From NCBI GenBank assembly GCA_963693365.1, contig CAVNZM010000002.1:4108259-4172258 (forward strand): a stretch of 64,000 nucleotides of DNA, read 5' to 3'. How positions within the stretch are numbered: the first letter of the stretch is position 1; the number at the start of each line of letters is the position of its first letter. The position numbers and the translations under genes are program-made. This stretch comes from Amoebidium appalachense. Its lineage: Eukaryota > Protista > Ichthyosporea. Positions 3,709 to 43,271 of the stretch are shown one piece after another. Below the pieces are notes generated by a model. It was not told the DNA's origin and did not search any database. It worked only from the letters and a program-made list of their open reading frames with translations.

Positions 3709-3984
3709 TGTACGTTTCATATGCGCAGCAGATGAAAGATGTTTCACGGATCACTTCGGGCGCAGGCAGCCGGGCGGCCCATGACGTCACGGGCCGCGGC
3801 GCCAGGCGCAGCCGCAGCGGCGGCTGACATCGGTCTGGCGCAGCGCCTGACGTCAGGCGCCACCAGCGCCGGTATTTCCGGCGCAGCACACTGCAGATGC
3901 AGGCCACCTTCGTTTTCGCCGTGTGCTGCACGTACGGTTTTTGTTAGCACGATTGCGTTTTCGGTGGCTAGCACACGGCGGCTC
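3709..3984 (+). repeat. Split direct repeat A1 (276 bp)
   Basis: Matches 13803-14078 with two visible substitutions. Contains TGACGTCA at 3782 and the 18-bp palindrome gcgcctgacgtcaggcgc at 3843-3860. Confidence 0.95.
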
Positions 3985-3988: not shown

Positions 3989-4061
3989 ATGGAAGTAGAC
4001 CCAACAGACAATGGCCCTGCAGCACAGGCAGGGCAGGAGGCGCGCCCTCCTGTGCAGGACG

Positions 4062-4133
<72 letters not shown>

Positions 4134-5413
4134 TTGCCCTGACCCCTGAGCTGGCAGCGACCATTCGCATGTCTGCTTCTGAGGTGGCCAACGCGACCCG
4201 TCAGGCCCTGCAGGCCAGCCCGGCCCCCCCTTCCCAGCAAGATCTTCTCCTGCGCGCCTTCCCCCACCTCGTCAACCTTGGCGGGGGCGGAACCGGTAGG
4301 AACCCCCCTGTCACGGGGCCCCCTGCCGCTGCGGCGGGGGCCGTGGATGCTGTAGAGCAACCCCCCGGCAACGCCAACAAGCGCCCCCGTGAGGAGGACC
4401 CTCAGGGCGGCGACATGCACCAGCTGCCTCCGCCGCCCAATGCCCTGCAACTGGCCGTTTGGGGGGCCAGCCAGCGCAGCCAGTCGAACCCACCCTGCCC
4501 CCACCTGTCCCCGGAGGTCCGGGGGGCTGCCATCTTCGAGCCTATGCAGCATTTCGCTTTACTCGACCTGCTGCCGCCCACGGGCTCTTCTGTCCACACG
4601 CAGCGCCAGCCGGTTTCCCTGCCTGGCCTGCCTGCTGGCACGGTTGTGCTGCAGACGCCTGGCACCCAGCGCCAGCCCGCCCTGTGCCCGGACCTGCAGA
4701 CCTACCTGCGCTGCATCTTGCAGCTGCTACGCCTACGCATCAACGCCGACGCCCCCGTCACGGCCCTGCTGGCCCACGCCGAGTTTGTGGCCACTGAGTT
4801 GGCACCCGAGTACCAGTGGGCTGCCATCATGCGCTGGGAGGATGCACACCGCCGGTCGTGCGCTGCCTCTGGCCGCCCACTCGACGCACCCGACGCTGTG
4901 CAGCTGGCCGTGTCCCTGTCTGGTGCCCGCCTGCACCAGGCACCCACCGCTCCCCGCACACCCCGGCAGCCTGCCTCTGGGGGGGCCACAGCCAGCCCTC
5001 GCGCCAGCCCGGCCCCTGCTGCGGATGAGATATGCCGGGGCTTCAACACGGCCAAGGGCTGCACCAGGAAGGGACCCAACCCTTGCCGCTACAAGCACGC
5101 CTGCCTGAAGTGCGGCTCAGCGGCGCACGGCGCACACGCCTGCCCTCCCAACCCAGCCAACGGGGCGGGGGAAGGGGGGGGCCAACCCGGCTTAGGGGGC
5201 CCACCCCCCTTTCGGGCAGGGGCTGACGTCCGCGCTGGGCCTGCCCTCTCCGTTGCCCTGCGGGGCCCATGGTCGCCCCCCCCAGCGGCACCACCACAGA
5301 CCGTATCTGTCCCCAACTTCCGCCGTTTGTTTGAGTTGTTTCCGCGCCCCGACAGTGCGTTTCAGCAGGCTCTGCTCCGCGACTTAGAGCTGGGCTTCTC
5401 GGTCGGTTACTTC
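3989..5413 (+). CDS. YR-retrotransposon Gag-like protein, continuing in frame into the RT N-terminus
   Basis: ATG lies just after A1 (MEVDPT). Contains polyQ and the Cys/His finger CRGFNTAKGC..C...H.CLKC....H....C, then ALLRDLELGFSVGY, which resembles the pre-RT region of DIRS/Ngaro elements. Confidence 0.8.
4064..4129 (+). repeat. (CAG)22 encoding polyglutamine in Gag
   Basis: Uninterrupted CAG run. Confidence 0.95.
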
Positions 5414-5415
5414 AG

Positions 5416-6528
5416 TTCGGCGAGCGGGTCACCCGGGTGGGCCGAAACCACCCGTCCGCGCTGGCGGCCCGTGAGCAGCTTGCAGCCGACATTGCGAAGG
5501 AAGTGGCATGCGGCCACATCCTGGGCCCCTTCACCCGCGACGAGATGGTGGCCCTTTATCCTTATTTTGTATCCTCGCCCCTCGGGGCAGTTCCCAAAAA
5601 GGGCGGCACGGGCGTCCGCCGCATCCACGACCTTTCCTTCCCGCGTGGCTCCAGTATCAACGATGGGGTCGATTACCCGGATCAGCTGGAGTACATCACC
5701 ATCCGCACGGTGATGCAAACAGTAGCTCGGCTCGGCCAGGGCTGCTTCCTCGGGGCATACGACGTGAAGGGTGCCTTTCGTCACGGCCCGGTGCACCCAG
5801 ACGACCAGCCACTGCTGTCGTTCCAGCTGCTAGGCGCGTTCTATGTGGAGACCCGCCTACCGTTTGGCTTGCGGTCCAGCCCAGCGTTCTGGGAACGCAT
5901 AGCTCAGGCCCTGCAGCACTTCGCCCACGCCCTCAACGCCACAGAGACACAGCATTTTGTGGACGACTTCTTTTTCGGCGGCCGTACGCTGCAAGAGTGC
6001 GCCTTCAACATGCTGGTGTTTCGGTGGGTGTGCTCGAAGGTGGGTGTTACGCTTGCCGACGACAAAGTGCAGCTGCCCTCACACACGCTCATCTACTCTG
6101 GGCTCGAGTGGGACACTCTGCGCATGGAGGCCCGCTTACCTGCCGTCAAGCTGACCGAGCTCCGGGCCCTGCTAGCCGATTGGCGGGGTCGCACCAAGGC
6201 CACTGTTCGAGACCTACGGTCCCTGTGCGGCAAGCTCATGTGGTGTGCTCAGGTTGTGGCGCTGGGGCGTGCCCGTGCCTTTCTTCAACGCTTGCTTCAT
6301 CTGCTGGCGGAGGCTGAGAGGGCCGGCCTAGGGCCCCACCACCACATCCGTGTCTGCGCCGACGCACGAGCCGACGTTGTGCTGTGGTCGGAGTTCCTCC
6401 CCGAGTGGAACGGCATACGTGTGCTTACCCCCCCCCGTGCATCACATGTTCACCACAGATGCGGCCGGCAGCATAGGATGCGGTGGCTACTGGGGTCAAG
6501 CGTGGTTTCACCTAGCATGGACGGACCA
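5416..6528 (+). CDS. YR-retrotransposon reverse transcriptase and RNase H N-terminus (frameshifted, interrupted by copia)
   Basis: Motifs NHPSA, SPLGAVPKKG, RRIHDLS, DVKGAF, LPFGLRSSP and FVDD. After a frame change at the C-run (~6428-6436) it reads TDAAGSIGCGGYWG..WF. Confidence 0.9.
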
Positions 6529-9500
6529 TGTAACTTAGAGGTTTCTCTGTGAGACTTTATTATTTGCTGACTTGCATTGACTGGCCTGCCGGGACCTTTA
6601 TATACTTGTGGTCTGGCTCACTGGAATGTTACATACTATTCCCGATTGGTCTACCCGCCGCTATGGATCTAGTCGCTACCAATCAAAGCACTCCAATAGA
6701 ATCTTCTAGACTCTTCTAGATCTATCCTGATCTATCGTGAACCTATCCACCAGTTTATCCCGAATATCTCGAATATTCCCGATCACTAGTGCTACGCTAA
6801 CGCAGGGCATACCGGATGGCTATCCTGTTCGACACCCCCACTTGCACTGTGTTCTATCTATGTACCGCATGCAACCTAAACCTAAGATGCAACTCTAAAA
6901 CTATGCTACTATACTAACACATATAACACCTACTATACGAACATTAACACTACACTATTTGTAGTTCTTACTCAGCCATGCCGATGGCCTGCCGATGCTG
7001 CACCAACTTAAGTCTCCCTAAAGCTTTGGTGCACATGTCGGCCACGTTACTGTTCGTGCTGCAATACACAAGTTCTACATCCCCATTCTCCACACACTCA
7101 CGGGTGTAGTGGTACTGAACGTCGATGTGTTTGCTCCTGTTATGGAGCATCGGGTTCCTTGCAAGCTTGATGCTGGCCTGGTTGTCGGCGTAGATGATGG
7201 TCGCCTCACTCATATCGTAGCCCAGCTGCCCCAGCAGCTGTCGTAGCCACTTAGCCTCTTTGACTGCCAGGCACGTAGCCATATACTCCGCCTCTGTAGA
7301 TGAAGTAGCCACAGTCTTCTGTTGCTTGCTGCCCCAGCTGATGGCAGATCCATTGGCAGTAAAGATGTATCCGCTCGTCGACTTACGGTCGTCGGAGTTG
7401 CCAGCGTAATCGGAGTCAGTGAATCCCTCCACTGTTGTACTCCCTCCTCCGCGGTAGACAATCCCGTAGTTGGTTGTCCCCTTGAGGTACCGGAGAAGAT
7501 GTTTGGCTGCGTCCCAGTGTTGAAGTCCCGGGTTGCTCACGAACTTACTAAGTTCCCCCACTGCTTGTGCAATGTCTGGCCGGGTGGCCACCATTGCGTA
7601 CATTAAGGAGCCCACAGCTCTGGCATAAGGAACTTGCCGCATCGCCACTCTCTCCTCCTCGCTTGCCGGACTCATGGCCTTGCTCAACACGCATCGCTCC
7701 GGTAGCGGTGTTGACTTAGCCTTGCAGTCGACCATGTTGAAGCGCCGCATCAATGACTTGATGTACGTTTCCTGTGACAATTTTATATCGCCTGTTGCAG
7801 CGTCACGACTGACCTGCACACCGAGTAGCAGCTTTGGCTCGCCGATCACCTTGACGGAGAACTTCGTCGCAACCTGCCTGACGAATTCTTGAATAAGATC
7901 ATCTGTCGACGCCGCCACTAGCATGTCGTCCACATGCACAGCCACCACCGTCTTTCCACTTCCGTTGACCTTGAAGTAGACACATCGATCAGCTTCCACA
8001 CGTGTGAAGCCAAGATCGACCATAGCCTCATGCATCTTCTCATTCCAGCACCTTGCTGCTTGCTTGAGGCCATACAGACTTTTGTGCAAACGACACACAT
8101 AGTCTTCCTTTCCGGGTACCTCGTACCCACGCGGTTGCTGCATGTACAGCTCTTCCTTGATGTCGCCGTTCAGGAACGCCGTGACGATATCTATTTGTGT
8201 GAGGTGCATGTTCTCTGCCGCTGCCATAGCGAAGAGAAGTCTGAAGCTGGTGAACTTGGCCACCGGGGCAAAGGTCTCTTCGTAGTCTATCCCCTCTTGC
8301 TGAGAGAAGCCCCTGGCCACACCACGGGCCTTGTAGCGCTCGACACTGCCGTCGGCGTTGCGTTTCATCTTGAAGACCCACTTGAAGGAAACTGCCCGAC
8401 GACCTGGTGGGAGTGGCACCAGTGACCATGTCCCATTCTTGACTAGAGATTCGTACTCCTCGTCCAGCGCAGCCTTCCACTTTGCACCATCTGGCCTGGA
8501 GATTGCTTCTTCCAGTGTCACAGGGTCATCCTCATTGCTATCAGCACTCTCAATTGCTATGCTGATACTGTCGCGGTACTCTACTACACCTGCGTTGATG
8601 CCGTAGGTCCCACCGCGCCTTGTAGTCATAGACGGATAGGCACTTCTGGTTGCAACCTGCAACTCTGCACTATCTTCCTCGTCTCCTGACCCTGCCGCGT
8701 CCGAATCGCCGCTGTCCTCGCCCGCGCCGTCGCCGATAGCATCTGAATCATATCCACTGTCAGTGCCGATTGCAGGCTTCCGAAAGGAATGTTGCTTCTT
8801 GACGCTGATTGGATTCCTCGATTCCAAGCTCTGCTGATTTCCGATTGGCTTATGCATCAGCAATTCCATTGGCTCATCTTGCACCACCGGAATACCGGCC
8901 TTTGGGGTGCATGATTCATCGATCACCACATCTCGCCCGACGATAGTCTTGCGCGCCTCGGTGTCCCACAACAAGTACGTCTTGCTGTCACCTGTGTAGC
9001 CGACGAATTTACACTCCCGACTCTTGGCGTCTAGCTTCCTGCGCTCGTCCTTCGGCACATGGACAAATGCCTTGCTACCAAATACACGTAGATGGCTAAC
9101 ATCGGGCTTCTCTCCATACCATGCCTCCCAAGGTGTCATGCCACCCAGTACTGTGGTTGGCGTCAGGTTCTTGATGTACACAGCTGCCTGTACTGCCAGC
9201 TGCCACTGAACCCCATACTCATGCCTGCTGACTGCAGCATGCAGCGCGCCGTCTCGACAATGGTCCTGTTAGCCCTCTCTGCTACACCATTCTGCTCTGG
9301 TGTGTAAGGGACTGTCGCCTCATGTTCAATGCCGCACGCTTCCAGGAACGACTTGAACTCAGTGGAGGTGTACTCACCCCCGTTGTCGGAACGCAGAATC
9401 TTGATGCTGGCACCGTGTTGCTTCTCTACGTGTGCCTTGTACTTCTTGAAGTAAGTATGCACTTGGGATTTATGTTTCATGAAGTACACCGTAGTGAACC

Positions 9501-11453
9501 TTGTCTTGTCGTCGATGAAGGTGACATAATACTTGGAACCTTGCAGCGACTCCTTGTTGAACGGTCCTGCCACATCAGAATGAACTCTGTCGAGCTTCGC
9601 TGGCGCTGTCTTGCGGGGTAGCTTACTGAAAGAGAGCCGGGCTTGCTTCCCTCTCGCGCATCCCTCGCACACACCGTCATCCTGGGTTTTGCAGTCGATG
9701 CACAGACCCTCGACGATGTTTTCTTTAACCATCTTCTGTAGCGTGTTTATTGCCACATGACCAAACCGCCGGTGCCATAAACTGGCGCTGCCCTTTACCG
9801 GCTCACACACGGTGTTACCCCCACTGCTGCCGACTGCAGTGGTCACCATGTTCACGCTCTCACATATGGGTTTCACTAGGAGACGATACAGGCCTCCCTC
9901 CACTACCCCACGGGCCACAACTTGGCCATCTGTGGCACTCTCAATCGTACACTGTCGACCGTCGGTGATGCCTCTTAACCCGTGCTTGCCGGCGCTTGAA
10001 GCCGACATCACGTTAGTTCCAAATGCTGGCACGTACAGCACATTCTGCAGTCTAAATGTCATGCTGTTGCCCTGGAACTCACTTGTTAATCTTACGACGC
10101 CTATTCCTAGCGCCATCACACCCGGGGTGTTACCCAGAGCGACGGGTTTGGGTGTGATCGACCGGAAGTCTTCCATCCAGTCCTTTCGGCATGTGACATG
10201 GGAGGTTGCGCCGCAGTCCCAATACCACTCAGTTGAAGAAGGGAGTCCGCTGTTTACCGCCATGGCGAGTATCTCCTTGGAAGCTCCGTTCTGCTTCGCC
10301 TTGTCGTCGCGATTGCCGCCCTTCTTCTTCTTTGGACACTGTGACTTGTAGTGCCCAAACTTGTGACATTTGTAACACTCCACCTTGGATATGTCAGTCA
10401 CGCGCGGCTTGCCGGTGTCCTGTCGTGGCGTACCGCCGCGCCATTGGGTGCTGGTCATCATCACCCGCTGCTGTTCCCTTGCAGCCTCGTTCTCCTCAAA
10501 ACCACGCAGCTTGGCGATTATCTTTTCCATTGTCTTCTCAGCTGCTGGTAAAGCTTGAATGGTCCTAACGTCGGTGCGGAATCGGTCGTCAGCGCCTACA
10601 CCGTCCAGGAATTTCTCGGCAACCATGTCCTCACTAACTCCATTGGGATCGATATGAAGAAGATCCTGCACAATGCACTCCAGGCGGGCCGCATACTCCA
10701 GCACGCTTTCCGTCGGCATCATATCAGCACGCCAGAACTGTTGAATCAACATTCTCTTGTGCTCATCTGTGTTGCGCGCAGCGTATGATGCTACCGTATC
10801 CCATATGTCCTTGGGATTTCCTACGGCAATAGCTCGCCGACACAGGCTTGCAGGTACATCACCTAGTGTCTCCACCAGGTAGGAAGTCGCCTTCTTCTGA
10901 TCCAAGGGGTCGATCTCCACCGGAGGTTGCTCCACCGGTTCGCCGTCCTCTCCTATCACTTCAGGAGCCACGTCTTCAATCGTGTACCATAATTCCTCGC
11001 CCTCGAGGAAGCACTTCATGCGCATGGCCCACATTGAGTAGGAGATTTTGCCCTTGCCTTCTCCTTCATACATGGGAACTGGACATTTTGCTCTTCCCAT
11101 CTTGTCTCAACAGTCGCTTGATCGTAGCGTTGTACTGGGTCCGTAACCGTAACTTAGAGGTTTCTCTGTGAGACTTTATTATTTGCTGACTTGCATTGAC
11201 TGGCCTGCCGGGACCTTTATATACTTGTGGTCTGGCTCACTGGAATGTTACATACTATTCCCGATTGGTCTACCCGCCGCTATGGATCTAGTCGCTACCA
11301 ATCAAAGCACTCCAATAGAATCTTCTAGACTCTTCTAGATCTATCCTGATCTATCGTGAACCTATCCACCAGTTTATCCCGAATATCTCGAATATTCCCG
11401 ATCACTAGTGCTACGCTAACGCAGGGCATACCGGATGGCTATCCTGTTCGACA
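6529..11453 (-). mobile_element. Full-length Ty1/copia LTR retrotransposon nested in the YR element RNase H
   Basis: LTRs at 6529/30-6834 and 11149-11453 look identical. TSD GACCA at 6524-6528 and 11454-11458. PBS GGTTACGGACCCAG at 11148-11135 and a purine-rich PPT at ~6835-6845. Domain order is gag-PR-IN-RT-RH. Confidence 0.96.
6968..11100 (-). CDS. Copia gag-pol polyprotein with one frameshift in integrase (~9206)
   Basis: CYKCHKFGHYKSQC knuckle, WDCGAT protease, WHRRFGH/CEGC, HSD..SDNGGE..NGVAER integrase, HVDD RT and TDSDYAG RNase H. Split between ORFs 9163-11100 and 6968-9181. Confidence 0.93.
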
Positions 11454-11458
11454 GACCA

Positions 11459-11849
11459 TTGGCGCACGGTCATTGCTGGCGGAGATGTGTGGGCTTCCGT
11501 GCTGTTTGAGCTGGCTGGCATTGCCGTGGCCCTGGCCTGTTGGGGTCCCAGCTGTCGCAACAGCCACATACGCGTGCTCACCGATAACGACGGTGCAGTA
11601 TCTACGATCGCGTCCCGTCACTCCCCCGTCCCTGCCATTGCCCGGGTGCTGCGTCTCATCACGCTGATGGAAATGTGCTACACGGTGCTGGTCTCGGCCA
11701 AGCACATCCCTGGCGTGGAAAACTCGATTGCGGATGCCATCTCGCGAGCACAGTGGGCCACTTTCGACCGGCTGCACCCGTGGCACGCACCAGTCCCAAC
11801 ACCCGTGCCTGAGTGGCTAGCGGGGTGGTTTGCTGCCCCTCTCTCGTGA
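11459..11849 (+). CDS. C-terminal part of the YR element RNase H
   Basis: Removing the copia and one TSD restores AWTDHWRTV...FELAGIAVALACWG..LTDN..HIPGVENSIADAISR in frame. Confidence 0.92.
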
Positions 11850-12542
11850 TGGGGCTGGGCCGAGCCCCCTCCCCTGTTCCTTTGCCTTCGTATTGGGCTT
11901 GGCGTGTGGGCTGTGGGGGGCACCGACACCCCCCCTTCCCCCCTTCCCACTTTGTATATCGCACGAGTCATGTTCTGCAGTGGCGGCCGGGGCCGGCCCC
12001 CCCCCCACTACACGAACTCGCTCGGATTCCCTCACTCACCCGGTGGAGTGTTTGGGACAATACATTACGGTCTTAGGGTGTACACACGGTGTGCCTCTTT
12101 GTTCTGTGCTGGCCCGCAGTGCCAACTGCTTGTGGCGTGTCCTGCCCCCCCCCCCCCCCCCCCCCCCCTCCTTCCCCTCCCCCAACCCCCCCAACCTGGC
12201 ACCCTGCCACCCCTCCACCCGCCCCTTCGATCGTGCATGCTTAACCTCGGTGTTACACACACATGCTCATACACACCCACACACTAGCGCACACACACGC
12301 ACGCCTACACCGCGGCTGGTGCGCGCATACCCCCCCCTCCCCTTCCCCCGCCCTCCCTGCCAGCGCTGCATGCATCCTCTGCCCTTTAGCTACGCCCCCC
12401 CCCCCCCCCCCTCCCCCCCCCTTGTTTGCCTGCCTGTGCACCCGCTTGCCTGCCGCCCACCCCGCTCGTTGCCTTTACCCCCCCCCCCCCCCCCCCCCCC
12501 TGGGACTCTAGGCATGATGCTCACACAGCTCTGTCCCTGCAG

Positions 12543-13660
12543 GTGGCTTGCTCCCCTTTGGTGGCGACCATGGTAGGCTTGCCCAGTGGTTCACCCCCGA
12601 GGTTTTGGCCCGTGTCCCGGAGGTGGCCCGCACCATCACTCGGCTGTCAGTGGGCGACAGCACGGAGTCCTCCTACTCGTCCTACCAGCGCCAGTTTATC
12701 GACTTCATCTACGCAATGGACTGCCGCAATCCTGATGGTGGCTACCTGCCAGCCTGCCCAGCCCAAGTGCAGCTGTTCCTTGCCTGGTGCGCCATGCGTG
12801 CGGTGCAAGCCCGGACCATGCCCAGCATCGTCTCCGCCGTCAACAGCCTGCACCGCAGCTTGGGCATGGCACCACCAGCGGGCTCCGGCCAGCAGAGCCT
12901 TCAGTGGTTTATCCGCGGGGCTGGCCGCTTCCTGCTGCTGGAAGGCAGCCACCGGCCCAAACGAGTGCTCGAGCCCCTCCTCCCAGCCGACCTCCGCGCC
13001 CTCCTCCCAGTCATCCAACCGGGCTCTTCATTGGAGGCCCTGCGTCTGTGGGCTGCCCTGCTGCTTGGCAGCTCGTGCCTCCTGCGCTCGGGCGAGTTCA
13101 CGTCCAAATCTGCGGCCAAGTTCAACCCCCTCCTTCACGCCAAGCGTCGCGACGTCCAGCTCCTATGGCAGGATGGCCGCCTGATTGGGGCAACAGTCTT
13201 CCTGCCGACATCTAAGACCGACCCCACGGGCAAGGGTGTTACCATCCGGGTGCCCGCCTTCCCGGAGGAGCCTTCCTTCTGCCCAGCAGCCAATCTAGCC
13301 CTCTTCCTGGGGGTCTCGTCAACCAGGGCAGGCATCCACCCAGATGCACCCCTGTTCAGCGTCGACGGCAGCCCTTACCTCAAGAGCACCTTCATCGCCG
13401 GTTTCCGCACAGCTCTACACCATGCGGGCTACGACCCCGACCGGTACGCCGGCCACAGCCTGCGCATAGGGGGGGCCACTGCAGCTGAGAGAGCGGGCCT
13501 ACCTGACGCCACCATCAAAGCCCTTGGCCGCTGGGCATCAGACGCATTCATGGTCTACATCCGGCTGCCCCACCGCGACGTGCAAGCCTCCATTGCCACC
13601 GTCTGGTCACACCAGGGCCTCGCCACGGGACCTTGGGGCGGACCCCCTACATCGCAGTAG
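12543..13660 (+). CDS. Tyrosine recombinase of the retrotransposon (no initiating ATG; begins at a splice-acceptor-like site)
   Basis: Catalytic motifs LRSGE, SKTD, HSLRIGGA and GRWAS..F..YIR. Confidence 0.93.
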
Positions 13661-13670
13661 GGGGGCCTTG

Positions 13671-13802
13671 TGGTGCTGGGGGGCTCATGGCATGGACCCC
13701 CCCTGGCGGCCCCCGCCTCGGCCAGCCCCTTGGGTGCAGGCACGACGGCCTGCACTCCACGGACACGGGGGGCATGAGGCAAGCACGAGTGAGTGATGTG
13801 AA
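13671..13802 (+). repeat. Split direct repeat B1
   Basis: Near-identical to 14193-14325. Confidence 0.93.
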
Positions 13803-14078
13803 TGTACGTTTCATATGCGCAGCAGATGAAAGATGTTTCACGGATCACTTCGGGCGCAGGCAGCCGGGCGGCCCATGACGTCACGGGCCGCGGCGCCAGG
13901 CGCAGCCGCAGCGGCGGCTGACATCGGTCTGGCGCAGCGCCTGACGTCAGGCGCCACCAGCGCCGGTATTTCCGGCGCAGCACACTGCAGATGCAGGCCA
14001 CCTTCGTTTTCGCCGTGTGCTGCACGTACGGTTTTTCTTAGCACGATTGCGTTTTCGGTGGCTAGCAGACGGCGGCTC
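13803..14078 (+). repeat. Split direct repeat A2
   Basis: Copy of A1 that abuts B1 (gtgaa|tgtacg). Confidence 0.95.
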
Positions 14079-14192
14079 CCACCCACCCACCTCTCAGTCT
14101 GTATACATGACGGTGTACGTATGCGACTGTGACTGGCTCACAGCCCGATTGCAGCGGCAATAAAGCATGTCGAGGCGGGGCCCAGCCCCGGC

Positions 14193-14325
14193 TGGTGCGG
14201 GGGGGGCTCATGGCATGGACCCCCCCTGGCGGCCCCCGCCTCGGCCAGCCCCTTGGGTGCAGGCACGACGGCCTGCACTCCACGGACACGGGGGGCATGA
14301 GGCAAGCACGAGTGAGTGATGTGAA
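14193..14325 (+). repeat. Split direct repeat B2 (right end of the element)
   Basis: Copy of B1, preceded by a unique 114-bp spacer containing AATAAA at 14159. Confidence 0.93.
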
Positions 14326-16268
14326 ACGTGCTATTTCGAATTCGGTGCGAAGCGAAAACATGATTGGTTTGTTCATGATGTTGCCGTTCAGCGCACATTC
14401 CGGTTCACGTGCTTCAGATCGCACACGCAACTATAAAAAACTGATGCGTTGCCCACAGCTGACAGTTCGGTGTCACTGAAACCTAAGTGCGGAATTAATT
14501 TTCTCTTGTCGCTTCTCCACATCTTTCTTTGCATACACACTCAATTCGCATCTATTCCAAACGACACGCGCATCAACTCTAGCTAATATAGAGCGCTACC
14601 CGCTTCACGCATAAAGCACGAGTTCGAAAATGGCCTACGACTCCGGAGACGTTGCATGGCTGCTCACAAGCACAGCGCTTGTGTTTATGATGACGCTGGG
14701 TCTTGCCTTCTTCTATGCCTCCCTCGTGCGTGAGTCCCACCTTGCCGACACGCTTGGTCTCACCATCATCTCCATGGGCATCGTCACCATTCAGTGGGTT
14801 CTTATCGGCTACTCGCTCTCCTTTGGCTTCGGCACCAGCAGCTTCATTGGCAACTTCATGTTTGCCGGCCTCAGGCAAATGTCTTCGTCAGAGCCGTCAG
14901 CCGATGCAGAGTCCTACGCTAGCAACGTCCCCGCCCTCGGCTTCATGGTTTTCCAGATGAGCTTTGCTGTGCTCACGCCGTCTCTCATCACCGGCGCGCT
15001 TATTGGTCGTATTTCGTTCAGGGGGTTCATTCTCTTCATCTTCCTCTGGACTACGTTCGTCTACGACCCCATCTGCCACTGGGTCTGGAGTCTTGACGGG
15101 TGGCTGCGTTCCCTGGGCTCGTTGGACTTTGCAGGGGGCTCCGTTGTGCACATCAGCTCTGGTTTTGCCGCCCTCGCCGCCGCGATTGTTGCTGGCAAGA
15201 GGCAACACCACGAGCGCGTCAACACGTCTGTGGATCTTCGCTTGAACCTGCTTGGTGCCGCCTTGCGGTGGGTGGGCTGGTTTGGCTTCAACGGCGGGTC
15301 TGCCGTGTCGGCTGGTGGGCTTGCCTCGTTGGCGTTGGCAAACACACAGGTGGGTAATACTGTTTCTAGTGGTCTTTTCTCGGTTACCAATAGATCTTCA
15401 TGGTCTGTGGCTGTCTTTCTTGCAAGTTGTGCATCTTGATGTAACAGTTCTTGCTGCCTGAGATGTTTGTTTTTTAATTCTAGAACTAGTCCGTTGTGTC
15501 CCATGATACCATCTTAAATATCAACTCCAATCTTCGTTTTCCCCTCCTCCGAGTCAAAACCTTTTGTAACACCTGCATTCACGCCACCAGATTTGTGCCG
15601 GCACTTCCATGTTCGTGTGGGCGATTCTCGACATGATGTGTGTTGGGCACATTGCGCTGGACAATGCGCTGTACGGTGCGGTGGTGGGTCTTGTTGTCAT
15701 CACCCCTGCCTGTGGCTTTGTGGTGCCCGGCTACAGTGTCGTCATGGGTGTCTACGGCACAGCTATCTCTAGTACCTCGTGCTGTTCCTCTGGAGAAAGT
15801 TCGTTGACCTCTTCCTCCCCTTCTTCCCCTCTTCCTACCCCACAGCTTCATTCATGCACTGCTATTCAAGCCCACCTCCCCATCACCTCCAACATCACAA
15901 GGAAGCATCACCAGCTGAAGTTCTAGCATGTTGCCTCGAAAGTGAACTTTTATTTGTGAAAAATGAAGACCTGCAAGCTTAAGAACCCCTAGGCTTTTAC
16001 AACCGACATCAACCACTCCCTTACTTACACCCCATCGAACCCATGCAGGTATGCGCACGACTATGTTGACGATGCGCTGTATGTGTTCTGCTCCCACGGC
16101 ATTGGCGGTGTGATTGGCTCTCTCTCCACCGGCCTCTTTGCTACCACAAGCGTCAACTCCGCTGGTATGCAGCCCTCTCCTCCAATCCCTTTCGAATTCC
16201 TCCCGATCCCGATCGTCTCCCCTCTGTTGCACCCTCGTCCACACCACTTTCCATTTTGTGCTTAGCTT

Positions 16269-16312
<44 letters not shown>

Positions 16313-16722
16313 ACCCCATACACACATTGCACACTTCCCCCTTTCCTCCCCGCCCTTCCTCCGGCGCGCGGAATTATTTTGGCTTCCCATCACCACAATA
16401 GTAGAACACTATGGCGTAGAGCGCATTTGGTAGGCCATCAACCTACAACCCTGCATCCGTACCCTTCACTTTTATCCACCCTTTCTGGTCACTCCCAATC
16501 CCTTCCGGTGCCCCAACTTCGCCCCCCCTCCCCCCCCCCCCCCCCCCCCCCACCTCTTCCCTTACTACAATATATCTCATGCCCCAAACATATGTACGCT
16601 TACTAACCCAACCCCGGCCTCCGCCTCCCCCTCAGCCCCCCCCCCTCCCCCCCCCCTCCCCCCCTCCCACACACACACATACACACCAAAAAAACCCCAA
16701 GAAAACCCATCCCTCCCAATCG

Positions 16723-16753
<31 letters not shown>

Positions 16754-17527
16754 ATAACAAAAACCAGGTGCGGACGGTGCATTCTACGGCAACCCCAAGC
16801 AGCTGGTGACATATACTAATCCGTCTCAGCAGATTAGCCCAAGTCTACGATCGAGATCGGGGGGGGGGGGGGGGGGGGGGGGGGTGGCCCGGGTCCACAG
16901 ATCATCAAGATCAAGTCCGGGGCCTCAAGATAGCTGAACAGCTGCGTGCATCTTGCCTCTGCCGGCGCAGGGCATTGGACCACGTCAGCCGGGACAGCCG
17001 TCCAATAGAATTCTAATTAGTGTGTAGGATAGATCGTAGGAGGACTTAGGAATGTGATTGTTCGGGCAGAAGCCCTTTTGTAAGGATTGGCAAGGTTTGA
17101 TAGTATATGTTGCCAAACGTATTTATATATGTAGATGTAGAGGAAAGGGGGGGAGGGAGGGGGGGGGAGGATAGTATGAAATGTAGATTTAGACTCTGCG
17201 GTGCCACTAGGGGGAGGGTGAGGGGTGAGACTTGGATAAATATATTAGTTGAGTAGATCGACTTAGCTCGTGCAGGCGCACGATAAAAGTAGATCGGAAT
17301 GTTAATGGAATGTGGCATCGTAGGGGGCCAGGTGATGATGATCTTGTAGGGCACGGCCTTGATGGCCTCAGTCGTAACTTAGACTTAATCCGTACGGATC
17401 TAAGTTTGCCCGTCGGAGCCTGGTCTTAATAAACTTTACCGTTTTTCTATACACGTTCGTTCCTTTTCGTGTGTGTACACTTAGTAGAGTGCCGCGTCTC
17501 TAGTACACATATATTAGGATACGACAA

Positions 17528-20500
17528 TGTAAACAGTTGGACTAGTTAGGATAAGGCCGAGTACAACTGAATCAAAATAAAGACAGAGAACGGGTAGAAA
17601 GGCACACGCGGCCAGGTTGCTTTTACTATGGGCCGACTCAGTCTGTCTCAGACTTCACTGATGTGATCCCCGTACTGGGACGGCTTTCTTATATAGCCCC
17701 CAGGTTTCGGATCAAGGCCCAGGATTGGTTCATCCACGGCCAGCGCGGGTGGCAACATGCCATTCGTGATTCTGGTGCGGTCCGAGCCAGTCAGACCTTC
17801 GTCCTATTTATGCAAACCTCTTATTGGTTCACTTCGTTTATGTGGTATGCAGCGGAAGAACCATATATGGTTCAATTCTTAGGTCAGAGTGAGTCCTATT
17901 GGTGCGGACATAATATTTATGTGATATTCATGACAAAGCACGAATCGTGTGCTAGTAGATCACATTCTTTAGTAAACATGTACAGTTCATGTGTACAGTT
18001 GTTTACACTCCCCCCCTTGTCGGGAGCCTGGTGGTGTCGTTAGACAAGCAAACCACCAGGCTGAGAGGCGATAAACAACCTTCAGCGAGAATTCTTGTGT
18101 GTGCCGAGCTGCTGGACAGAACAGAGCAAGGACGGTGGAATAGAGTTGTGCACGTCTATGAGCACTTCTTCATTTGCCAAAACGTAAATTCATGCAGCAT
18201 TCTTCTGTGATTTCATTTTCGTGGCGAAGATTGTTGCAGAGTGTGCGTGCGAATAATTCGCTAAGCCTTCGTCTCTGTGCTTGGCTTTTCTGTAGAAGTA
18301 GTATTTTCCTTTTTGGGAATTTTTCCTTTTTAGGATACTCCCGCAGATTCGTTTTCAATTGCGAGTAATTTGGTTGTGTGGATGAATGATCATACCAAAC
18401 ATTCGATAATGAATATAACTCAAGCCTTAGGTCACTTCGTAGCTCAGGTAGTGGTGGATAGCTTCAAGGCTTAGCCACTGCTCCTTATCCCGGTTCTACC
18501 TTAAGACTGTAAGGCGAGTCACCATGGCCGGAAAAGCCACTTCTTTCATGAACAAAGAGCACTTCTTTCCTTTCAGCTTTAACCCTGCATCATCGGAGCC
18601 GGGAATAGCATGAATAAGAATGCCCTAAATGTTCTTCGTTGGGCGACATAAAGAAATATATCAGCCCGTCAGAACCAGTAAAAACCCGGTTCATAATTCA
18701 TAAGAAGAGGGTAGGCAAAGCAAGCCTTCTTCAGAAAACACATGCTTCCATTCGTGAGCAGTTTTCGTATCCCATTTGCCAGCCATTTTCGTTGAGCAGG
18801 GGGATTCCAGGCATAATACATTCTTCTGGAGGCTTGGCCTAAAAAGAAAAGTCGTCGGAGTCGCCCTTTCTTTTGTAAGCAACTTCGTGAGCGCGCTTCG
18901 TGTTTTCATATCCTCCAGTGCAGGTCTGGATGGTGCCCCATCCTCTGCTTCATTTGTAGGTGGCCCTACTGTTGGTTCTGTTCGTTGTGTGGAAAACCAA
19001 AACCATTCGTATTCGTGGAACTGCTTTGTGCTGTGCTTGCTTTCGTGTTGGTGTTCATGAAGTTACCCCGTTCACACACCCTACTTCTTACATACATTAG
19101 ATGTAAGTAGCTGCCTGGTGAGTGTGTGGTTCGTGTTCGTGGCATTCTTCTGTTCCTTCGTGAGAAGAATATTCGTTTTAGCAGAGGTGCCCAATAAGGC
19201 AGCTTGTGGGGTTGTCTCCCGCATGTGCCCATTGGTGGGGTATGCACGTGCTAAATTGTTACAGTGTCATCATATTGCAAGGGAATAACATGGTCACCTC
19301 CGTACCAGGGCCTAGGTACACATGATGGTCCGATGTGTTTGTCAACAACACCTTGCATTCGTATTCGTATTCGTCTTCCACGTCACTTTCTTCAGTAGTG
19401 AAGGAGGGTATTCGTAATTCGAAACTGAAAGGCTTCCAGCCAAAATACTGACACTGTATGCTGGGGTTGTGAGGGAACGGTGCCCATACCACATTCTTTT
19501 GTTCTGGTGGGGGTGTGCCGGCAGCTAGTGCAAGGCTTGACAGTGTAATTGGTATGTTACACAGTATTGCCACAGACGGGCATTCACCTTAAAATTCGTA
19601 CCCAACACCTTCTTTGTTTTTCACATGCATGAACAAAAGTTCTGCATCGACTTTATTACATGCCTTTTGTGCACCAAGAGTGCAAATTCGTTAGGGCGTG
19701 GCACCAGGAAGGGCCGCCATACATGAGTCAGGCATATGTTCGTAATGTGTTTAGGCATGCCAGCATACATTCATGCGCATGTTGTGCATCCTGTGCGCTA
19801 AACTATGGGGCATGCTGTATTCGAGAACAGCAAGGGATTCGAAGCATGCATGCAACACTACTTTCATAAGATCTTAGGTCCTACATGCTATAGCAACAGC
19901 GACTATCTTCTTCGTTAAGTGCATTTGTGCTGAAAGTGGCCGTGCATCTGGCTTGCGAGTGTGGACGTGCATGCGGTGGCATGGACACGATGGCAGTGTG
20001 CAATAGGGCAATGCACGCAAGGGCAACGGTTTTATTTTCTTCCTAACATAGAGGGGGCTGTGTGCATTGCAACCCAAGCAGTGTTGTGCATTCGTCCTTT
20101 CATTTTCGTATTTCCAGTTCATTTTGCTTTCGTTTTTCGTTTTTTGTCGTTTGATAACTTTGTTACTTCGTTTTGTTTTCGTGTTGCATTCATTTCGTAT
20201 TTCCTCTATGCAATCGTTTGTCGTTAATTCTTTATTTCATTGTGTATTCGTGATGGTTCGTTTTTTGTTGGTTCATTGCTTCGTTAGCAATTCTTTATTC
20301 GTTTGTTCGTGTATTCGTTGTTTCGTTGTGTATTCGTTTTTCTTCACATTTTTGATGTGTCGTAGCAAAAGAAGTTTTACATGCTTTCAATTCTTTCCGT
20401 GTAGGTGGGCTGGCCACTTCAAACTTGTAGGTGTATATATTCTAAGCCGGACAAGGAAAGATGTGCCTATCATCGGGGTAAAAAGGATTGTGATCGGCGG

Positions 20501-21123
20501 GAGATTCTTGAGCTGATTGAAAGATGTGAGATTCTTGAACTGATTGAAAGATGTGAGATTCGAAGGATGCGAGATTCTTGAACTGCGCGGTCGCCAATGT
20601 AAACAGTTGGCAATGTAAAACAGTGTCCTGCCGCGGTCGCCAATGTAAACAGTTGGACTAGTTAGGATAAGGCAGAGTACAACTGAATCAAAATAAAGAC
20701 AGAGAACGGGTAGAAAGGCACACGCGGCCAGGTTGCTTTTACTATGGGCCGACTCAGTCTGTCTCAGACTTCACTGATGTGATCCCCGTACTGGGACGGC
20801 TTTCTTATATAGCCCCCAGGTTTCGGATCAAGGCCCAGGATTGGTTCATCCGCGGCCAGCGCGGGTGGCAACATGCCATTCGTGATTCTGGTGCGGTCCG
20901 AGCCAGTCAGACCTTCGTCCTATTTATGCAAACCTCTTATTGGTTCACTTCGTTTATGTGGTATGCAGCGGAAGAACCATATATGGTTCAATTCTTAGGT
21001 CAGAGTGAGTCCTATTGGTGCGGACATAATATTTATGTGATATTCATGACAAAGCACGAATCGTGTGCTAGTAGATCACATTCTTTAGTAAACATGTACA
21101 GTTCATGTGTACAGTTGTTTACA
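17528..21123 (-). mobile_element. Non-autonomous gypsy-derived LTR element nested at the host 5' LTR boundary
   Basis: 480-bp LTRs at 17528-18007 and 20644-21123 with two visible mismatches. TSD GACAA. Minus-strand PBS TGGCGACCGC next to the right LTR and PPT AAGGGGGGGAG next to the left LTR. Internal RT remnant AGLKLKGKKCSLFMKEVAF at ~18535-18590. Confidence 0.9.
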
Positions 21124-22150: not shown

Positions 22151-25100
22151 TGTTATAATACGTAGTATTTACATATTGTAAGATCTTCTCAGTTCGTGTT
22201 ATGTTTTCATTCATTTACTTAATGAAAAAGATGTGCTCCTTGTACGTAAATTATGACATCGATCTCCAGTGTATTTGAGTACTTGTAATCGTGTTGTGTC
22301 GGCTATATTCGTGTGTTTAGATATCGATTACAGCAACTGATTATAGGTACACGAGTCTACCCAGTGAGGGAGACACGTGTACATGTTATGTGTACATGAA
22401 TATCTTCGGTTATAACTGTGTTTTGCTGTTCGTGTTTTCTGTCCTGCTTTCTTTTCTTTTTCCTCTTTCTTCGTCTTTTCTTTTCTCTTTCTTTCTTCTC
22501 TTGTTTCCTTTCATTTAATTATATTTCTCTCTCACTAATATACGTTGAGTAGATTTATATTACTCGTTATGTTTTGATTGGTAGAAAAACACTTAGGTTA
22601 CACTTTAGCTTGTCAGGTATGATTCATAGCTTAGTCAACCACTTTTGTTTTGTGTGTTGCCGTACTATATCCAATCAGTGGACTTAGTCAGAAAATGTCT
22701 GAGTCTTTGTAGCCGATGATAGGTTAGAAACACCACCTCTTTCCTCGTTACTCTTCACCTCTTTTCTTTCTTATAGCTGTGACCTATGGTGTGTGTTCCC
22801 GCGTCTCCGGATCTATCCGGGAAATAATCAGTTAATTATGATTGGTTATTTTAGACATAGATCTGATTTCCGACTGGTCGGAAATCATGTATGGATTTAA
22901 CTTAAGGGAATTTCAGGTATTTATTAGCGATCAAAATAAATTGAGTTCAGTCGTGTCTAAACATTGATGTCTGTTGTGTACACTGCTCCGATCGTTCCGT
23001 GTTTTGTTGTTGTGTGTGTCTGTGGTGTTTTCACACTGCACCACTGTGTCTCTGCTTTCATCCCAAAATACTTATAGAATTTAACAGGTTATGCAGCCCT
23101 TTTGCACGCTCCCTACACACATCTAGAACTCGCGCTCGTTTTTCAATCATGGATCCAAACAAAACTGGCGTAAACAAAATCACCATGTGGAAAGGTGAAG
23201 GGAAGACTGGTCCCGATAGCAAAACTACCTATTTTCAATGGGAAATCATTTTTCTCGGCATGATGACCGGCACTAAAGGTGTCCGACTCGTGGATGTTGT
23301 CCTTGCTGACAACTACGTCCCCCCTACCACCGTCGCGGTTGACGGTGAACCCCCCTTCTATGGCTACGGCACTACCGCGGAACTCAAAGAGGCCCGCAAT
23401 TGCCTCCTGCTCCATATAATACAGAACATCGACCCTTCCGTCCTCACCACCGTTGCCCAGTACCGTATTGGCATGGACCCTGAACGGGCCATGTGGAAAT
23501 TCCGTCAACACTATCTCCAAGGCAAACCCGATCAGATCCGCATCCTTCACCGTCAGTGGGATGCCTGTGCCCTTCAGCCCGGTGAATCATTCACCACCTA
23601 CCTGAGCCGTCTGCAGACCATCGTGAACCAGCTCCAGTCTCTCCAAGATGAGTCCATTCACTTCACTCGTCTAGCTGAGAAGTTCTTCAATGAACTCACC
23701 ACCAGAGACGACCTCACCCCTGAGTTCAATCGTCTTATCGAAGACTATCACTTCGGTGATAAGCTATTCCCCGACTTCGAGTCCCTCCATAACCACGTCA
23801 AGGGCATCGAGTTACGTCAAGACCTCAAGATGCAACTCCGGAACAACCGTGCCCACCGTGCCTCCAAGTCCAGCATGGCATTAAATGCCAGTGCTCCCCC
23901 CCGTGATCTTCCTCGCCGTGACTTACGCACCCGACTTGACCGTACCTCTGGCACGGACCTCCGAACTCGTCTCTCCCGTCAGCACACCCGATCCCGTTCC
24001 CCCCACCGGCCTGCCTTCCGGTCCACGTCTCGTTCCCCCAGTCGTTCCCGTTTCTCGGGTTCCCGTCGTTCTGATTCCCCGGCTCGTTCTAACACCCCGT
24101 CCGTGAAAGAATGCTCCTACTGCCACGAGCCTGATCACACGATCATCGATTGCCCTGAGCCGAAATGCCGTATGTCCAGACACAACCGTTCCCGTCAAGG
24201 CAGTGAGAAATCTGTCTCCTTTGCTTTCTCGGCATACAATGCTAGCTCCGTCCCCGTGTCCTCCGACCCTGCCTGGGATTCCGGGTGCAACATGACTGTT
24301 TGCCCCACCCGTGAGTTCTTCCATGACCTCACTCCCCTTCCGACACCGACTCCCGTTGCTGCCTTCAATGGCACCCCCGTCTTGGCCACTCACACCGGCC
24401 ATATCGTCATCAACACCACCACCGACCATGGCACTACCACCCTAACCATTGAAGCCTACTACACCCCGTCTGGCCAAGCCTTCCTCATTTCAACATCCCA
24501 AGCTGCTGCCGAATACATCAAGGGTGATTTGAACGATGCCTCCACTCCGTCATTCCTCTTCGACCGACTCACCGGCCGTCATCTCGTCAACCTCCGTCTA
24601 CACAACGGTCTGTATTACTTCAAGGACTACACCATTCAACCACCCACTCGTCCTGTGGCTCTGGCTGCCACTACCAGTGTTAACCCATCCATCTGGCACC
24701 ATCGTCTGGGGCACCGAGCTATGACCAGCATCAAGGACATGGTGAAACACGACCTTGTTATTGGTCTCCCCTCCTCTGTCCTCGACTGTGATGTTCCTGA
24801 TTGTCATGGCTGCATTATGGGTAAGACCACCAAGGCTCCGTTCAGGGGTGACCGTCCTCACTCCAACATCCCCGGTCATGAATGGCATTGGGATTTTTTT
24901 GAGCCTACCACAACATCGTACGGAGGTTCCAAGGTTGCTCTCGTCACTGTCTGCCGTGCCTCTGGCCTCGTCAAGATCTACCCGATGGCCGACCGTACCA
25001 CCACCCTGGATATTCTCACAGCTCACACCAACCTCGTTGCCACCCATGCCCCCTCCAAAGTTGGTGTTTACCACTTCGACTCCGGCTCTGAGTTCACCTC

Positions 25101-27700
25101 CAAGGATACCCGTGCTTTTTGCCTCTCCCAGGGCATCAAGGCCAGCTATGCTCCGGTGGACTGCCCTCAACTGAACGGCTATGTTGAACGACGTATGCGG
25201 TTCCTCCAAGAGATTGTCTGTTGCCTCCTCCATCAAGTCCAAGATCAGTCTCTGTCTCCCAAACTGTGGGCTGAGGCCCTCCAACATGCCGCCTACATCA
25301 TCAACGTCACCCCGTCCACGACTGCCAATGGTCGTACACCATTCGAGGTTTTCTACGGTGTCAAGCCCGACATCTCCGAGCTCAAAGTGTTCGGTTGCCC
25401 TGCCTACACTCACGTGCCAGCCTCTAAACGGAACAAGCTGGCCCCCACCGTCAAACTCGGCATGTATATCGGCTATGATCTTCAATCACACTGCCACCGG
25501 ATCTTCAATGCCACCACCCATCGTGTCGGCCTCTTCCGTGATGTGATTTTCGACGAATCAGCTTATCTCCCGTCCGACATTCCATCAACCCTTCCGACCC
25601 CCGACACCACTGCTACCTCGACCACCCCACCCCCCACAGTTGACACTGAAGATGATGTTTGTCTGGTGTACTCTGGCCCCCCTCCTGCCATCGTCGTTCC
25701 CCCGACACCCCCCCCCCCACCGGCCCCCCTGCCCCCGTGCCCGTCCAGCCTGCCGACCCTCATCCTGCCCCTGGCAACGTCACACCCATCCGACCCGGCT
25801 CCCCCGACAACTTCCACTCGGCCCCATCCAGCCCGGAGGTTGCCCCCCCTGCACTTCCGAACTTCCAAGTTCCCCCCCCACCGTCTCCACCTACCCCGGT
25901 TCCTGCACCCCGTCGTTCTGCCCGTCTCCAGGGCAAGGTTGGACTTCAAGCCACCACCACCCTGCCAGTCCCCCCCGGTCCCCCCATCAACATCGACCAA
26001 CTACCCAAACTTGTCCGTCAACTCTGTTCCGGACCCAATGGTGATCAGGTCAAGTCAGCCCTGACTGCTGAGTATCAAGCCTTCGTCGACAAAGACATCT
26101 TTGAACTTGTTGACCCTCCCCCTGGTGCTAACATCGTCGGCTTCAAGTGGATTGTCTCCGAGAAAACTCTCAACTCGGCTGGTGACACCAAGATCAAGGC
26201 ACGTGGTGTTGCTCAAGGCTTCAGTCAGCAATACGGTGTTGACTATGAGTTGATTGAGAGCCCTGTCATCCGTCCGGCTGCTCTCCGTGCCATCCTAGCT
26301 CTGGCCGTTGTTGAAGGTCATGACATACATCAACTCGACGTGTCTACGGCCTTTCTCAACAGCCCACTCACCGAGACCATCTACATGAAACAACCCCCGG
26401 GATTCATCACCATGGCCACACTTGGCAAGGTCTGGAGACTCAAGAAAGCCCTGTACGGCCTCAAGCAAGCCTCCAAGGCTTGGTACGACTTCCTCGACGG
26501 CATTCTTCTTGCCCATGGCCTGACCCGTACTAAGACCGACCCGTGCATCTACCTCCGGTTCTTCCCCAACAACGATGTGGTCCGGGCTGGTAACTACGTC
26601 GATGACTCCACCATCACCAACACCCGGGGTTCTACTGCTGCCAGTGACCTGGCTGCCCACATCAGCAAGATGGCCAGCTGTCGTATGAGTCCATTTGACC
26701 GTATGCTCGGTGTTGATTTTAATCACTCTGATCCCCATCACCTCCACATGCACCAGAGGTCTTACATCATGGATATCATCCACGACTTCAACCTCACCGA
26801 TGCCAAGTCCAAGTCTACCCCCATCCCTGCAGGCACCACCGTCTCCCTGGCTGATTGCCCCCCCCAACCGTTCACCGTGCCCTACCGTGAGTTACTCGGC
26901 CGTCTCCTCTGGGTGGCACGGTGCACACGTCCCGACATTGCCTATGCCATCGGCTTCCTTGGTCGGTTCAGCACCAACCCCGGCAAGACTCACTGGGACC
27001 TTCTCCGTCGTGTGGCCCGGTACCTGCTCGGCACCATTGACCTTGGCATTGACTACAAGTACTCGGCCACCCAGTCCCCCATACTCGAATGCTACACGGA
27101 TGCTGACTTTGCTGGTTGTGCCGACAGCAAGAAGTCTACCACCGGCTACATTATCGTGTTTGCTGGTATGCCCGTCATCTGGTACTCCAAGCTCCAGCCC
27201 ATCACGGCCACCAGCACCACTGAAGCTGAGCTGATTGCTCTCAATGCTGGCACCCAAGAAGTTGCTTGGGTCCGTGACCTCTTCAAGGAACTCGGCTGTC
27301 CCATGCTTGCTCCGACTCCGGTGTACTGTGACAACCAGTCGACCATTGCCATCGTCAACTCCACCGGCATCAAGCACCGTACCAAACACATTGCCGTCCG
27401 GTATCACAACACCAAGGACTACATTGCCAGTGGGGACGTGGTTGTCCACTACGTTGAGTCAGCCCACAACTTAGCTGACATACTCACCAAACCCCTCCCC
27501 GGCCCGAGTCATGTCCACCATCGTGCTCGACTTTGTTTACCGGATATTGTGGATTGACCCGACCTACTTCAAGAGTGATTTTCTCATGTGTACTACTTAC
27601 TTTATCAACATCATTATATCATATGTATTGCCTTTGTGGGTATGCCCACTTAGGGTTTATATATAAGGTTTGACCCGTACCATCACTCTACTCTATCTTT
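22151..27700 (+). mobile_element. Ty1/copia element nested in chromovirus pol; 3' LTR missing (right boundary approximate)
   Basis: Putative 5' LTR TGTTA(22151)...TAACA(23086) is followed directly by PBS GGTTATGCAGCCC and a complete gag-pol. No second LTR or TSD was seen. Confidence 0.85.
23149..27557 (+). CDS. Copia gag-pol polyprotein (frame change at C-runs ~25680-25730)
   Basis: RS-rich tract, CSYCHEPDHTIIDC, WDSGC protease, WHHRLGH/CHGC, D-D-E (WD, FDSGSEF, NGYVER), YVDD and YTDADFAG. Confidence 0.92.
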
Positions 27701-27763
27701 CACTGGTTTAAAACCCAGTTAATCAAACACCGCCTATACACGTTATATATATTCGTTGTTTTT

Positions 27764-29047: not shown

Positions 29048-29052
29048 ATGCT

Positions 29053-30984: not shown

Positions 30985-31167
30985 TTTATTATTTTTCTTC
31001 GTCATTCATTTAATTTAATTTTTTTAGGAGACTGATTAGTCTATGTCTTTTTAGGGGGTGTTAGATGTAATGTGACTGAGGTGGGACTCAGCTTTTCCGG
31101 GGGCCGGGGGGGGAGTTGACATATACTAATCCGTCTCAGCAGATTAGCCTAAGTCTACGATCGAGAT

Positions 31168-31201
<34 letters not shown>

Positions 31202-34492: not shown

Positions 34493-37634
<3,142 letters not shown>

Positions 37635-42906: not shown

Positions 42907-42957
<51 letters not shown>

Positions 42958-43271
42958 ACACACAAAACAAAACAAAACAAAACAAAACAGGTGCGGACGG
43001 TGCGTTCTACGGCAACCCCAAGCAGCTGGCCATCCAGCTTGCCGATGCATGTGCCACTGCGGGCTGGTCGTTTGTGCTGACCCTCCTCATCTCGCTGCTG
43101 GTCAAGTACACGGTGGGCCTGGGCGCACACATGGGGGCCAGCGAGGTCACCATGCCCCACACGGAGCAGAGTCTGATTGGCGCTACCGTCGTGCCCGTGA
43201 CCGTACTGGTCGGCCATGGGGGTGAAAATGGGAACGCAGATATGGTTAAGAAGCAGACTGAGAGCGCATGA
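40428..43271 (+). CDS. amt: Ammonium transporter (Amt/Mep family) copy 3, apparently intact, 440 aa; exons 40428-41147, 41327-41532, 42326-42441, 42991-43271
   Basis: GT-AG introns join to 1323 nt in frame. Contains the twin-His motifs DFAGGSVVH and HGIGG, plus WFGFNGGS, FQMSFA and GLVVITPA. Confidence 0.93.

Follow-up and report, generated by a model that had tools for sequence, protein, structure and literature searches.

The locus analysed here raises the question of how a retrotransposon can express a tyrosine recombinase (YR) whose reading frame is closed by upstream stop codons and whose first ATG lies inside the predicted protein fold. The locus is part of a 64,000-nucleotide stretch of Amoebidium appalachense DNA (here called the window), a segment of an intron-rich eukaryotic genome. 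Self-comparison, translation, and Pfam searches identified a Ngaro-type retrotransposon with the order A1-gag-RT/RNase H-YR-B1-A2-B2 (Table 1). The original prediction held that this YR needs either a non-AUG start or a phase-1 upstream exon spliced to an acceptor inside the element; the positions on which it was built (the TGA/ATG overlap, the 693-bp spacer, the stop at 12515, CTCAC, 12542, the ATG at 12716, and phase 1 at 4295/4296) were all found to be right.

Table 1. Features of the Ngaro-type element (positions counted from the first nucleotide of the window; a slash marks the predicted exon border).
Feature	Position	Strand	Basis
Terminal repeat A1	3709–3984	+	99.3% identity to 13803–14078 over 276 bp
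Predicted common first exon: 102 codons and one base from the gag ATG, with polyQ	3989–4295	+	ORF from ATG 3989; exon status predicted
Candidate phase-1 splice donor CCG/GTAGGA	4296–4301	+	Donor matrices
Remainder of gag, Cys/His knuckle region	4296–5195	+	Translation
Candidate second phase-1 acceptor before pol (hypothetical)	5200–5219	+	Pyrimidine run, CAG ending at 5219
pol: reverse transcriptase and RNase H start	5309–6528	+	Pfam RVT_1, E = 1.2e-10
Inserted Copia element	6529–11453	−	Identical 305-bp LTRs; 5-bp target duplication (6524–6528, 11454–11458)
RNase H 3′ part, stop TGA 11847–11849	11459–11849	+	Translation; aligns to RNase H ends of relatives
Spacer, 693 bp, C-rich 3′ half; predicted optional-intron 3′ end	11850–12542	+	Composition, frames
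Candidate branch point CTCAC (−20), pyrimidine tract, acceptor CAG/G, phase 1	12519–12542	+	Host-trained matrix
YR coding region (first ATG at 12716), predicted second exon	12543–13660	+	Cre-like fold; 46% identity to P0001
Repeat B1	13671–13802	+	98.5% identity to 14193–14325 (133 bp)
Repeat A2	13803–14078	+	Self-comparison, pairs with A1
Terminal repeat B2	14193–14325	+	Self-comparison; other insertion flanks start behind 14325–14327 in runs X1, X3, and X16

The element carries split direct repeats in A1-B1-A2-B2 order, with gag, RT/RNase H, and YR following one another on one strand and no DDE integrase of its own, which is how passages of PMC3783388 and PMC9210276 define Ngaro elements. 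No adenine methyltransferase domain was detected downstream of RNase H, which ends at 11849, and four ORFs in the spacer had no Pfam match. PAT-like elements combine split direct repeats with a methyltransferase, according to a passage of PMC7192593; here, split direct repeats are present and no methyltransferase was detected, which speaks against a PAT-like element. Membership of the DIRS1-like group is likewise not indicated, as self-comparison of the element gave direct repeats only and inverted terminal repeats with an internal complementary region are absent. The element thus resembles the Ngaro superfamily (order DIRS) in its split direct repeats, gene order, Cre-like YR, and lack of a detected methyltransferase (PMC3783388, PMC9210276, and PMC8547959, in part). 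Unlike Ngaro elements described in these passages, whose ORFs overlap or are fused, the window element has a gap of 693 bp between RNase H and YR, and it has no SGNH hydrolase ORF. The gag gene was identified by its position and Cys/His pattern, with no Pfam or database homolog found for it; a TAG at 5193–5195 lies outside the gag frame in the window copy. The YR ORF spans 12518–13660 from stop to stop, and its match to Pfam Phage_integrase (E = 0.0059) is below the cut-off. A quick YR tree, built with no named reference elements, placed the window YR with the proteins P0001, P0002, P0051, and P0057 (SH-aLRT 98), in a clade separate from 28 rows representing the related loci described below.

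The window copy is inactive: it is interrupted by the Copia insertion, and its pol has two frame breaks, near 5410 and near 6430. The Copia element splits RNase H, a point absent from the original prediction, and looks young, with identical LTRs; its own gag-pol is broken into two frames near 9200. A second Copia element (22945–27557) is followed by a Gypsy-type RT/RNase H/integrase region (27674–30984), and the segments 16807–17526 and 17522–18007 are repeated at 31117–31842 and 20638–21123, respectively, which suggests nested insertions. A long CAG repeat encoding polyQ (4066–4131) lies within the predicted first exon.

The RNase H stop (TGA) overlaps an ATG at 11849 that is in the YR frame (TGATG), and this frame is then closed by stops at 12074 and 12242, a TAG at 12509 that the original prediction had not listed, and a TGA at 12515. 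Because the last two stops lie downstream of the last C-run, variation in C-run length cannot open the YR frame. The first ATG in the YR frame (12716) corresponds to ORF residue 67, 33 residues inside a Cre-like fold. The predicted YR structure (mean pLDDT 78.3, pTM 0.66; values <50 at residues 1–16 and 39–54) matches Cre (Foldseek E = 3e-10; VIA Z = 20.9, rmsd 3.7, 274 aligned), with residues 34–344 of the model placed on Cre 25–318; in this model, a protein beginning at residue 67 would be missing two predicted helices of the N-terminal domain (27–44 and 47–66). The best-scoring stretch shared with the nearest protein, P0001, starts at ORF residue 10, which is the first whole codon after the AG at 12542; the called Met of P0001 itself lies 37 residues before the point at which its conservation begins. 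The catalytic residues R190, H313, R316, and Y347 are invariant across the YR alignment. A search for longer YR fusions returned one fungal protein only, and scans of viral contigs found no match.

Other copies of the family were read as assembled contigs of eight out of 24 listed sequencing runs, over 11455–13670 for runs X10, X15, X19, and X23 and over 11455–16200 for runs X1, X3, X16, and X20. Element contigs in X1 had a depth of 344–366, as compared to approximately 24 on flank contigs, corresponding to roughly 15 copies. The X1 contig covering 12510–13683 (depth 366) showed three substitutions (two of them at 12655 and 13210) and no gap, and it extends 31 letters further into the C-run; the X16 contig is identical over 12510–12685, and X3 has no gap before 13677. 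Since multi-copy contigs carry the same region without indels, the absence of an upstream ATG is a family trait; loss of an ATG in the window copy alone, through an indel in 12510–12716, is excluded by these gap-free contigs. The spacer is present at family-level depth wherever contigs covered it, and the set of X10, X15, X19, and X23 has no long contig across 12131–12655. No joint at 12543 was seen among the loose ends listed for the contigs of the eight runs, none of which is confirmed as RNA; contigs drop rare forms, and the absence of this junction counts neither for nor against splicing. The ratio of YR to RNase H contig depth was 2.0 in X15, 1.5 in X19, 0.6 in X10, and 1.1 in X1, values that cannot rank the genes. 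Contigs in X1, X10, X15, and X16 match only the YR motif at 13441–13479 and then diverge, indicating at least one more YR family. In X1, summed depth reaches 950–1540 over B1-A2-B2 (13681–14316), as compared to approximately 360 over the coding part; this is more than the repeats alone predict, and one possible explanation is the presence of short or non-autonomous copies with the same ends.

The spacer had been likened to host introns, a description that fits its 3′ 412 bp (C skew 0.57, five C-runs) and fails for its 5′ 280 bp (C skew 0.11). Host introns span C skews of −0.50 to 0.79, and the window has long C-runs at 55 places; composition alone is therefore weak evidence. Neither Pfam nor Rfam matched the spacer, and its 5′ part folds no better than shuffled sequences (z = −0.87). 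In the window copy, one of the spacer frames stays open over 251 codons, and a 1-base deletion near 11996 in contigs of X1, X3, and X10 disrupts it; the spacer is thus unlikely to be coding. We read the spacer as the 3′ end of a single optional intron of 3317 bp, in preference to a host-style intron standing on its own. Of the original suggestion of a host-style intron kept in the element, retention through unspliced RNA would stand, with the spacer becoming the tail of an intron that would contain pol.

Host splice sites were taken from 17 introns framed by translation (five in calreticulin, three in the intact ammonium transporter, six in the broken transporter paralogs, and three in the ABC gene), those of calreticulin and the intact transporter giving clean spliced proteins. 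The fourth calreticulin intron, at 58980 on the minus strand, has a GC donor (GC-AG), and splicing leaves a clean frame with DEL at its end. The three ammonium-transporter paralogs (14630–16806, 34493–37634, and 40428–43271) have three introns in common; the third paralog alone is intact, with the first frameshifted and cut by insertions and the second carrying stops. On the plus strand, an ABC-transporter gene (50600–55400) carries frameshifts and stops; its introns, like those of a class 3 lipase gene on the minus strand (45600–48500), have very long CA/GT and C/G runs. With a matrix trained on 18 host acceptors in the window, framed by homology, the acceptor at 12542 ranks first among the 21 AGs in 11850–12720 and third among the 282 in the element. 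Across the window, 141 of 7117 AGs (about 2%) score at least as high, and 15 of the 18 host acceptors outscore it in a leave-one-out comparison. The pentamer CTCAC lies at −20 from 12542, and branch-like pentamers are found at −20 to −27 in 11 of the 17 host introns. Judged on the window alone, the acceptor at 12542 is plausible, not proven.

The proposed donor at 4295/4296 is a weak site. Under a generic donor matrix, the GT at 4296, which is in phase 1 at codon 102, is the best in gag and second among the 189 in the element, with a score of 2.3, as compared to −1.7 to 6.4 for host donors; under a matrix built from just 12 donors in the window, it ranks only 40th of 655 GT/GC sites. Donor and acceptor agree in phase, and the interval from 4296 to 12542, minus Copia, has a GT, a candidate branch point, a pyrimidine tract, and an AG; the joined frame is open over 475 residues and ends in a single terminal stop.

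Distant relatives provide evidence from outside the family. A scan of metagenome contigs yielded 79 loci (best 80 of 564 confirmed) that are approximately 33% identical in YR; 69 of these have the RNase H end motif (ADxLSR anchor) and form 32 families at 75% identity, with the other ten dropped. In these relatives, YR overlaps the end of RNase H and there is no spacer, and no Met precedes the helix-B motif in 23 of the 32 families. A CAG in the RNase H frame lies 18–57 nt past the ADxLSR anchor in 31 families and is in phase 1 for YR in 30; the exceptions are a frame-broken locus (L049) and one without the CAG (L045). The 12 nt ahead of the CAG are at least 66% pyrimidine in 26 of the 32 families; by the same measure, the count is at most 5 of 30 across 23 control windows lying upstream and reaches 10 of 32 in one control window lying downstream, the test window having been picked after the pattern was seen. 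Seventeen of the families come from one assembly; among the other 15, from 12 assemblies, 14 have the CAG and 10 the tract. The position of the CAG slides from +24 to +54 among families, fourfold sites before it carry a pyrimidine in 59 of 76 cases (1478 of 3384 upstream), and the CAG:CAA ratio is 36:9 versus 155:90. A stop in the YR frame precedes the CAG in 28 of the 32 families, and a canonical slippery heptamer is present in one. These patterns point to a nucleotide-level signal in the relatives with the same phase and layout (stop, tract, CAG) as in the window. Because the window YR is approximately 3.2 changes per site from the locus families in the quick tree, the phase match spans a deep split. 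Within the family, the acceptor region is unchanged in the X16 contig and free of indels in the X1 and X3 contigs. Spliced genomic copies were sought among the 79 related loci, and none of 115 junction-like deletions had GT-AG ends.

Signals on the donor side were scored in 14 families, those with a callable repeat pair from which the first ATG of the element could be placed. The best GT past this ATG (generic matrix) is in phase 1 in 12 of the 14, at codons 55–126, as compared to 67 of 181 control windows in RT and YR (binomial p = 2.6e-4, the families not being independent); four of the 14 repeat calls (L003, L034, L065, and L075) may not be true terminal repeats. Three further families, placed through a long gag ORF, gave two phase-1 sites and one phase-2 site, bringing the count to 14 of 17 among the 17 of 32 families covered. 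A pyrimidine run and CAG also precede pol in the window, the CAG ending at 5219, 24 nt after the TAG. A phase-1 candidate pol acceptor is found in 13 of 22 relatives, but a Met precedes the conserved motif in 18 of the 22. Candidate acceptors for a split gag were counted, without a control, in 7 of 11 families. In five loci (L005, L009, L017, L025, and L029), gag seems to be split into a short first ORF of 70–140 codons, which ends soon after a phase-1 donor, and a second, separate ORF that holds the knuckles and has a candidate phase-1 acceptor close to its beginning; judging from these ORFs, the Gag of the five loci may itself need splicing.

Several other routes to a YR product were weighed against splicing from gag. 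Use of the acceptor at 12542 from a different donor is unlikely, even though 96 of the 189 GT sites have an in-phase upstream ATG. The site at 6040 in RT scores 5.4 and beats 4296 under both matrices, but it is served by an ATG at 5508 that lies outside the RT frame; a site at 3872 in A1 scores only 0.1, and the best donor in the relatives sits in early gag. The original prediction had also offered a short exon from the ATG at 11849; the TGATG overlap is indeed there, but the four phase-1 GT sites that follow score between −2.8 and −5.6, and this exon is not supported. Slightly less likely again is a separate YR transcript from an internal promoter in the spacer, translated from a non-AUG codon (TTG 12548, TTG 12605, or GTG 12623). 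These codons are in frame, upstream of or at the edge of the Cre-aligned region, two of them have a purine at −3, and the spacer is retained in the family; however, these codons would face competition from the out-of-frame ATGs at 12514, 12517, and 12570, and an internal promoter leaves the phase-1 CAG and pyrimidine tract of the spacer-less relatives unexplained.

Ribosomal frameshifting into YR, from pol or an upstream ORF, has precedent in that Ngaro YR ORFs are described, in a passage of PMC3783388, as in frame with or frameshifted from RT-RH, and the 251-codon open frame of the spacer in the window copy is in keeping with it. With the RNase H stop lying 693 bp before YR, a single frameshift is not enough, and two +1 shifts would be required; the deletion near 11996 breaks the open frame in other copies, and the relatives have a YR-frame stop just before the CAG and almost never a slippery heptamer, making this route improbable. 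We regard as equally improbable that the AG is a chance match and that the element either makes a shortened YR from ATG 12716 or makes none and is mobilised in trans. The share of window AGs that score as high, the low model confidence at residues 39–54, and the presence of other YR families in the same runs are consistent with such readings; against them, residues 10–66 are open, conserved with P0001, and aligned to the Cre N-terminal domain from residue 34, and the catalytic residues are invariant.

We propose that YR is made from a spliced RNA in which the first 102 codons of gag, ending at 4295/4296, would be joined to the acceptor at 12542, and we give this reading a probability of about 0.74 on the sequence evidence; splicing to 12542 from any donor is very probable. 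The phase-1 exon, donor, and acceptor of the original prediction have gained in weight from the 32 distant families and the family contigs, with no spliced junction observed. A transcript initiated in A1 would be either left unspliced or spliced. The unspliced RNA would be both the Gag message and the genome for reverse transcription, and splicing would remove 3317 nt (4296–12542 minus Copia), namely the rest of gag, pol, and the spacer, the predicted product being a Gag-N/YR fusion of 475 residues. Its Gag-N part would provide the start codon and might assist the loading of YR into the particle. Copies derived from spliced RNA would lose pol and be non-autonomous, and autonomous copies would keep the intron; because the predicted intron holds pol, so that losing it deletes pol, there is nothing paradoxical in its retention. 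The same gag exon may also feed pol through the acceptor at 5219, a weaker proposal. For Ngaro elements in general, the balance tips slightly towards a short Gag-N exon that holds the only usable start codon and is joined in phase 1 to YR, and in some families also to pol or the rest of gag. As part of that reading, and with the same modest lean in its favour, the window family would have moved the YR acceptor from RNase H into a host-like non-coding tail; because the acceptor sits outside RNase H in this family, a single frameshift is excluded, and the family offers the cleanest test.

In retroviruses and LTR retrotransposons, one transcript serves as unspliced genome and as a spliced downstream message (env mRNA, spliced gag, or Tyb-type), and in retroviral-type subgenomic splicing a suboptimal donor preserves both RNA forms. 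The proposed splicing differs in that its downstream product is the integrating enzyme, which would carry the N-terminal part of Gag as a fusion, and the window element, unlike retroviruses and LTR elements, has no DDE integrase, protease, or LTRs. Introns in some fungal elements of the DIRS group may have been mentioned by Goodwin and Poulter (in 2004), which could lower the novelty of the proposal. Penelope-like elements keep introns after retrotransposition; these are short, and the reasons are described as unknown in a passage of PMC8557442. The likeness lies in splice signals kept across rounds of copying; unlike the introns in that passage, the predicted intron here contains pol, and selection alone explains its retention. 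In Dictyostelium DIRS-1, an engineered intron yielded spliced as well as unspliced cDNAs (PMC7192593, in part), suggesting that DIRS RNA is exposed to splicing and that either form can be copied. DIRS-1 belongs to the same order (DIRS), but it has inverted repeats and a methyltransferase, the intron was an engineered reporter, and natural splicing of YR is not described in the available passages of PMC7192593. The stems “splic” and “intron” do not occur in the text available from PMC3783388 and PMC9210276, nor does “splic” in that from PMC8547959. Keyword passages of these papers and of PMC3266345, PMC7192593, PMC6681497, PMC4157794, PMC5890265, PMC8557442, PMC3212892, PMC5718144, PMC9341512, and PMC8226300 contain no description of a spliced YR in Ngaro, and literature searches turned up none.

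How a YR without a start codon, as in 23 of the 32 related families, is expressed is a question left unanswered in the passages of the literature searched, and a Gag-N/YR fusion would answer it. If true, splicing from gag would define the real N-terminus for working Ngaro recombinases or transposition assays, and pol-less spliced copies would be predicted as a class of non-autonomous elements; host splicing would set the Gag:Pol:YR ratio.
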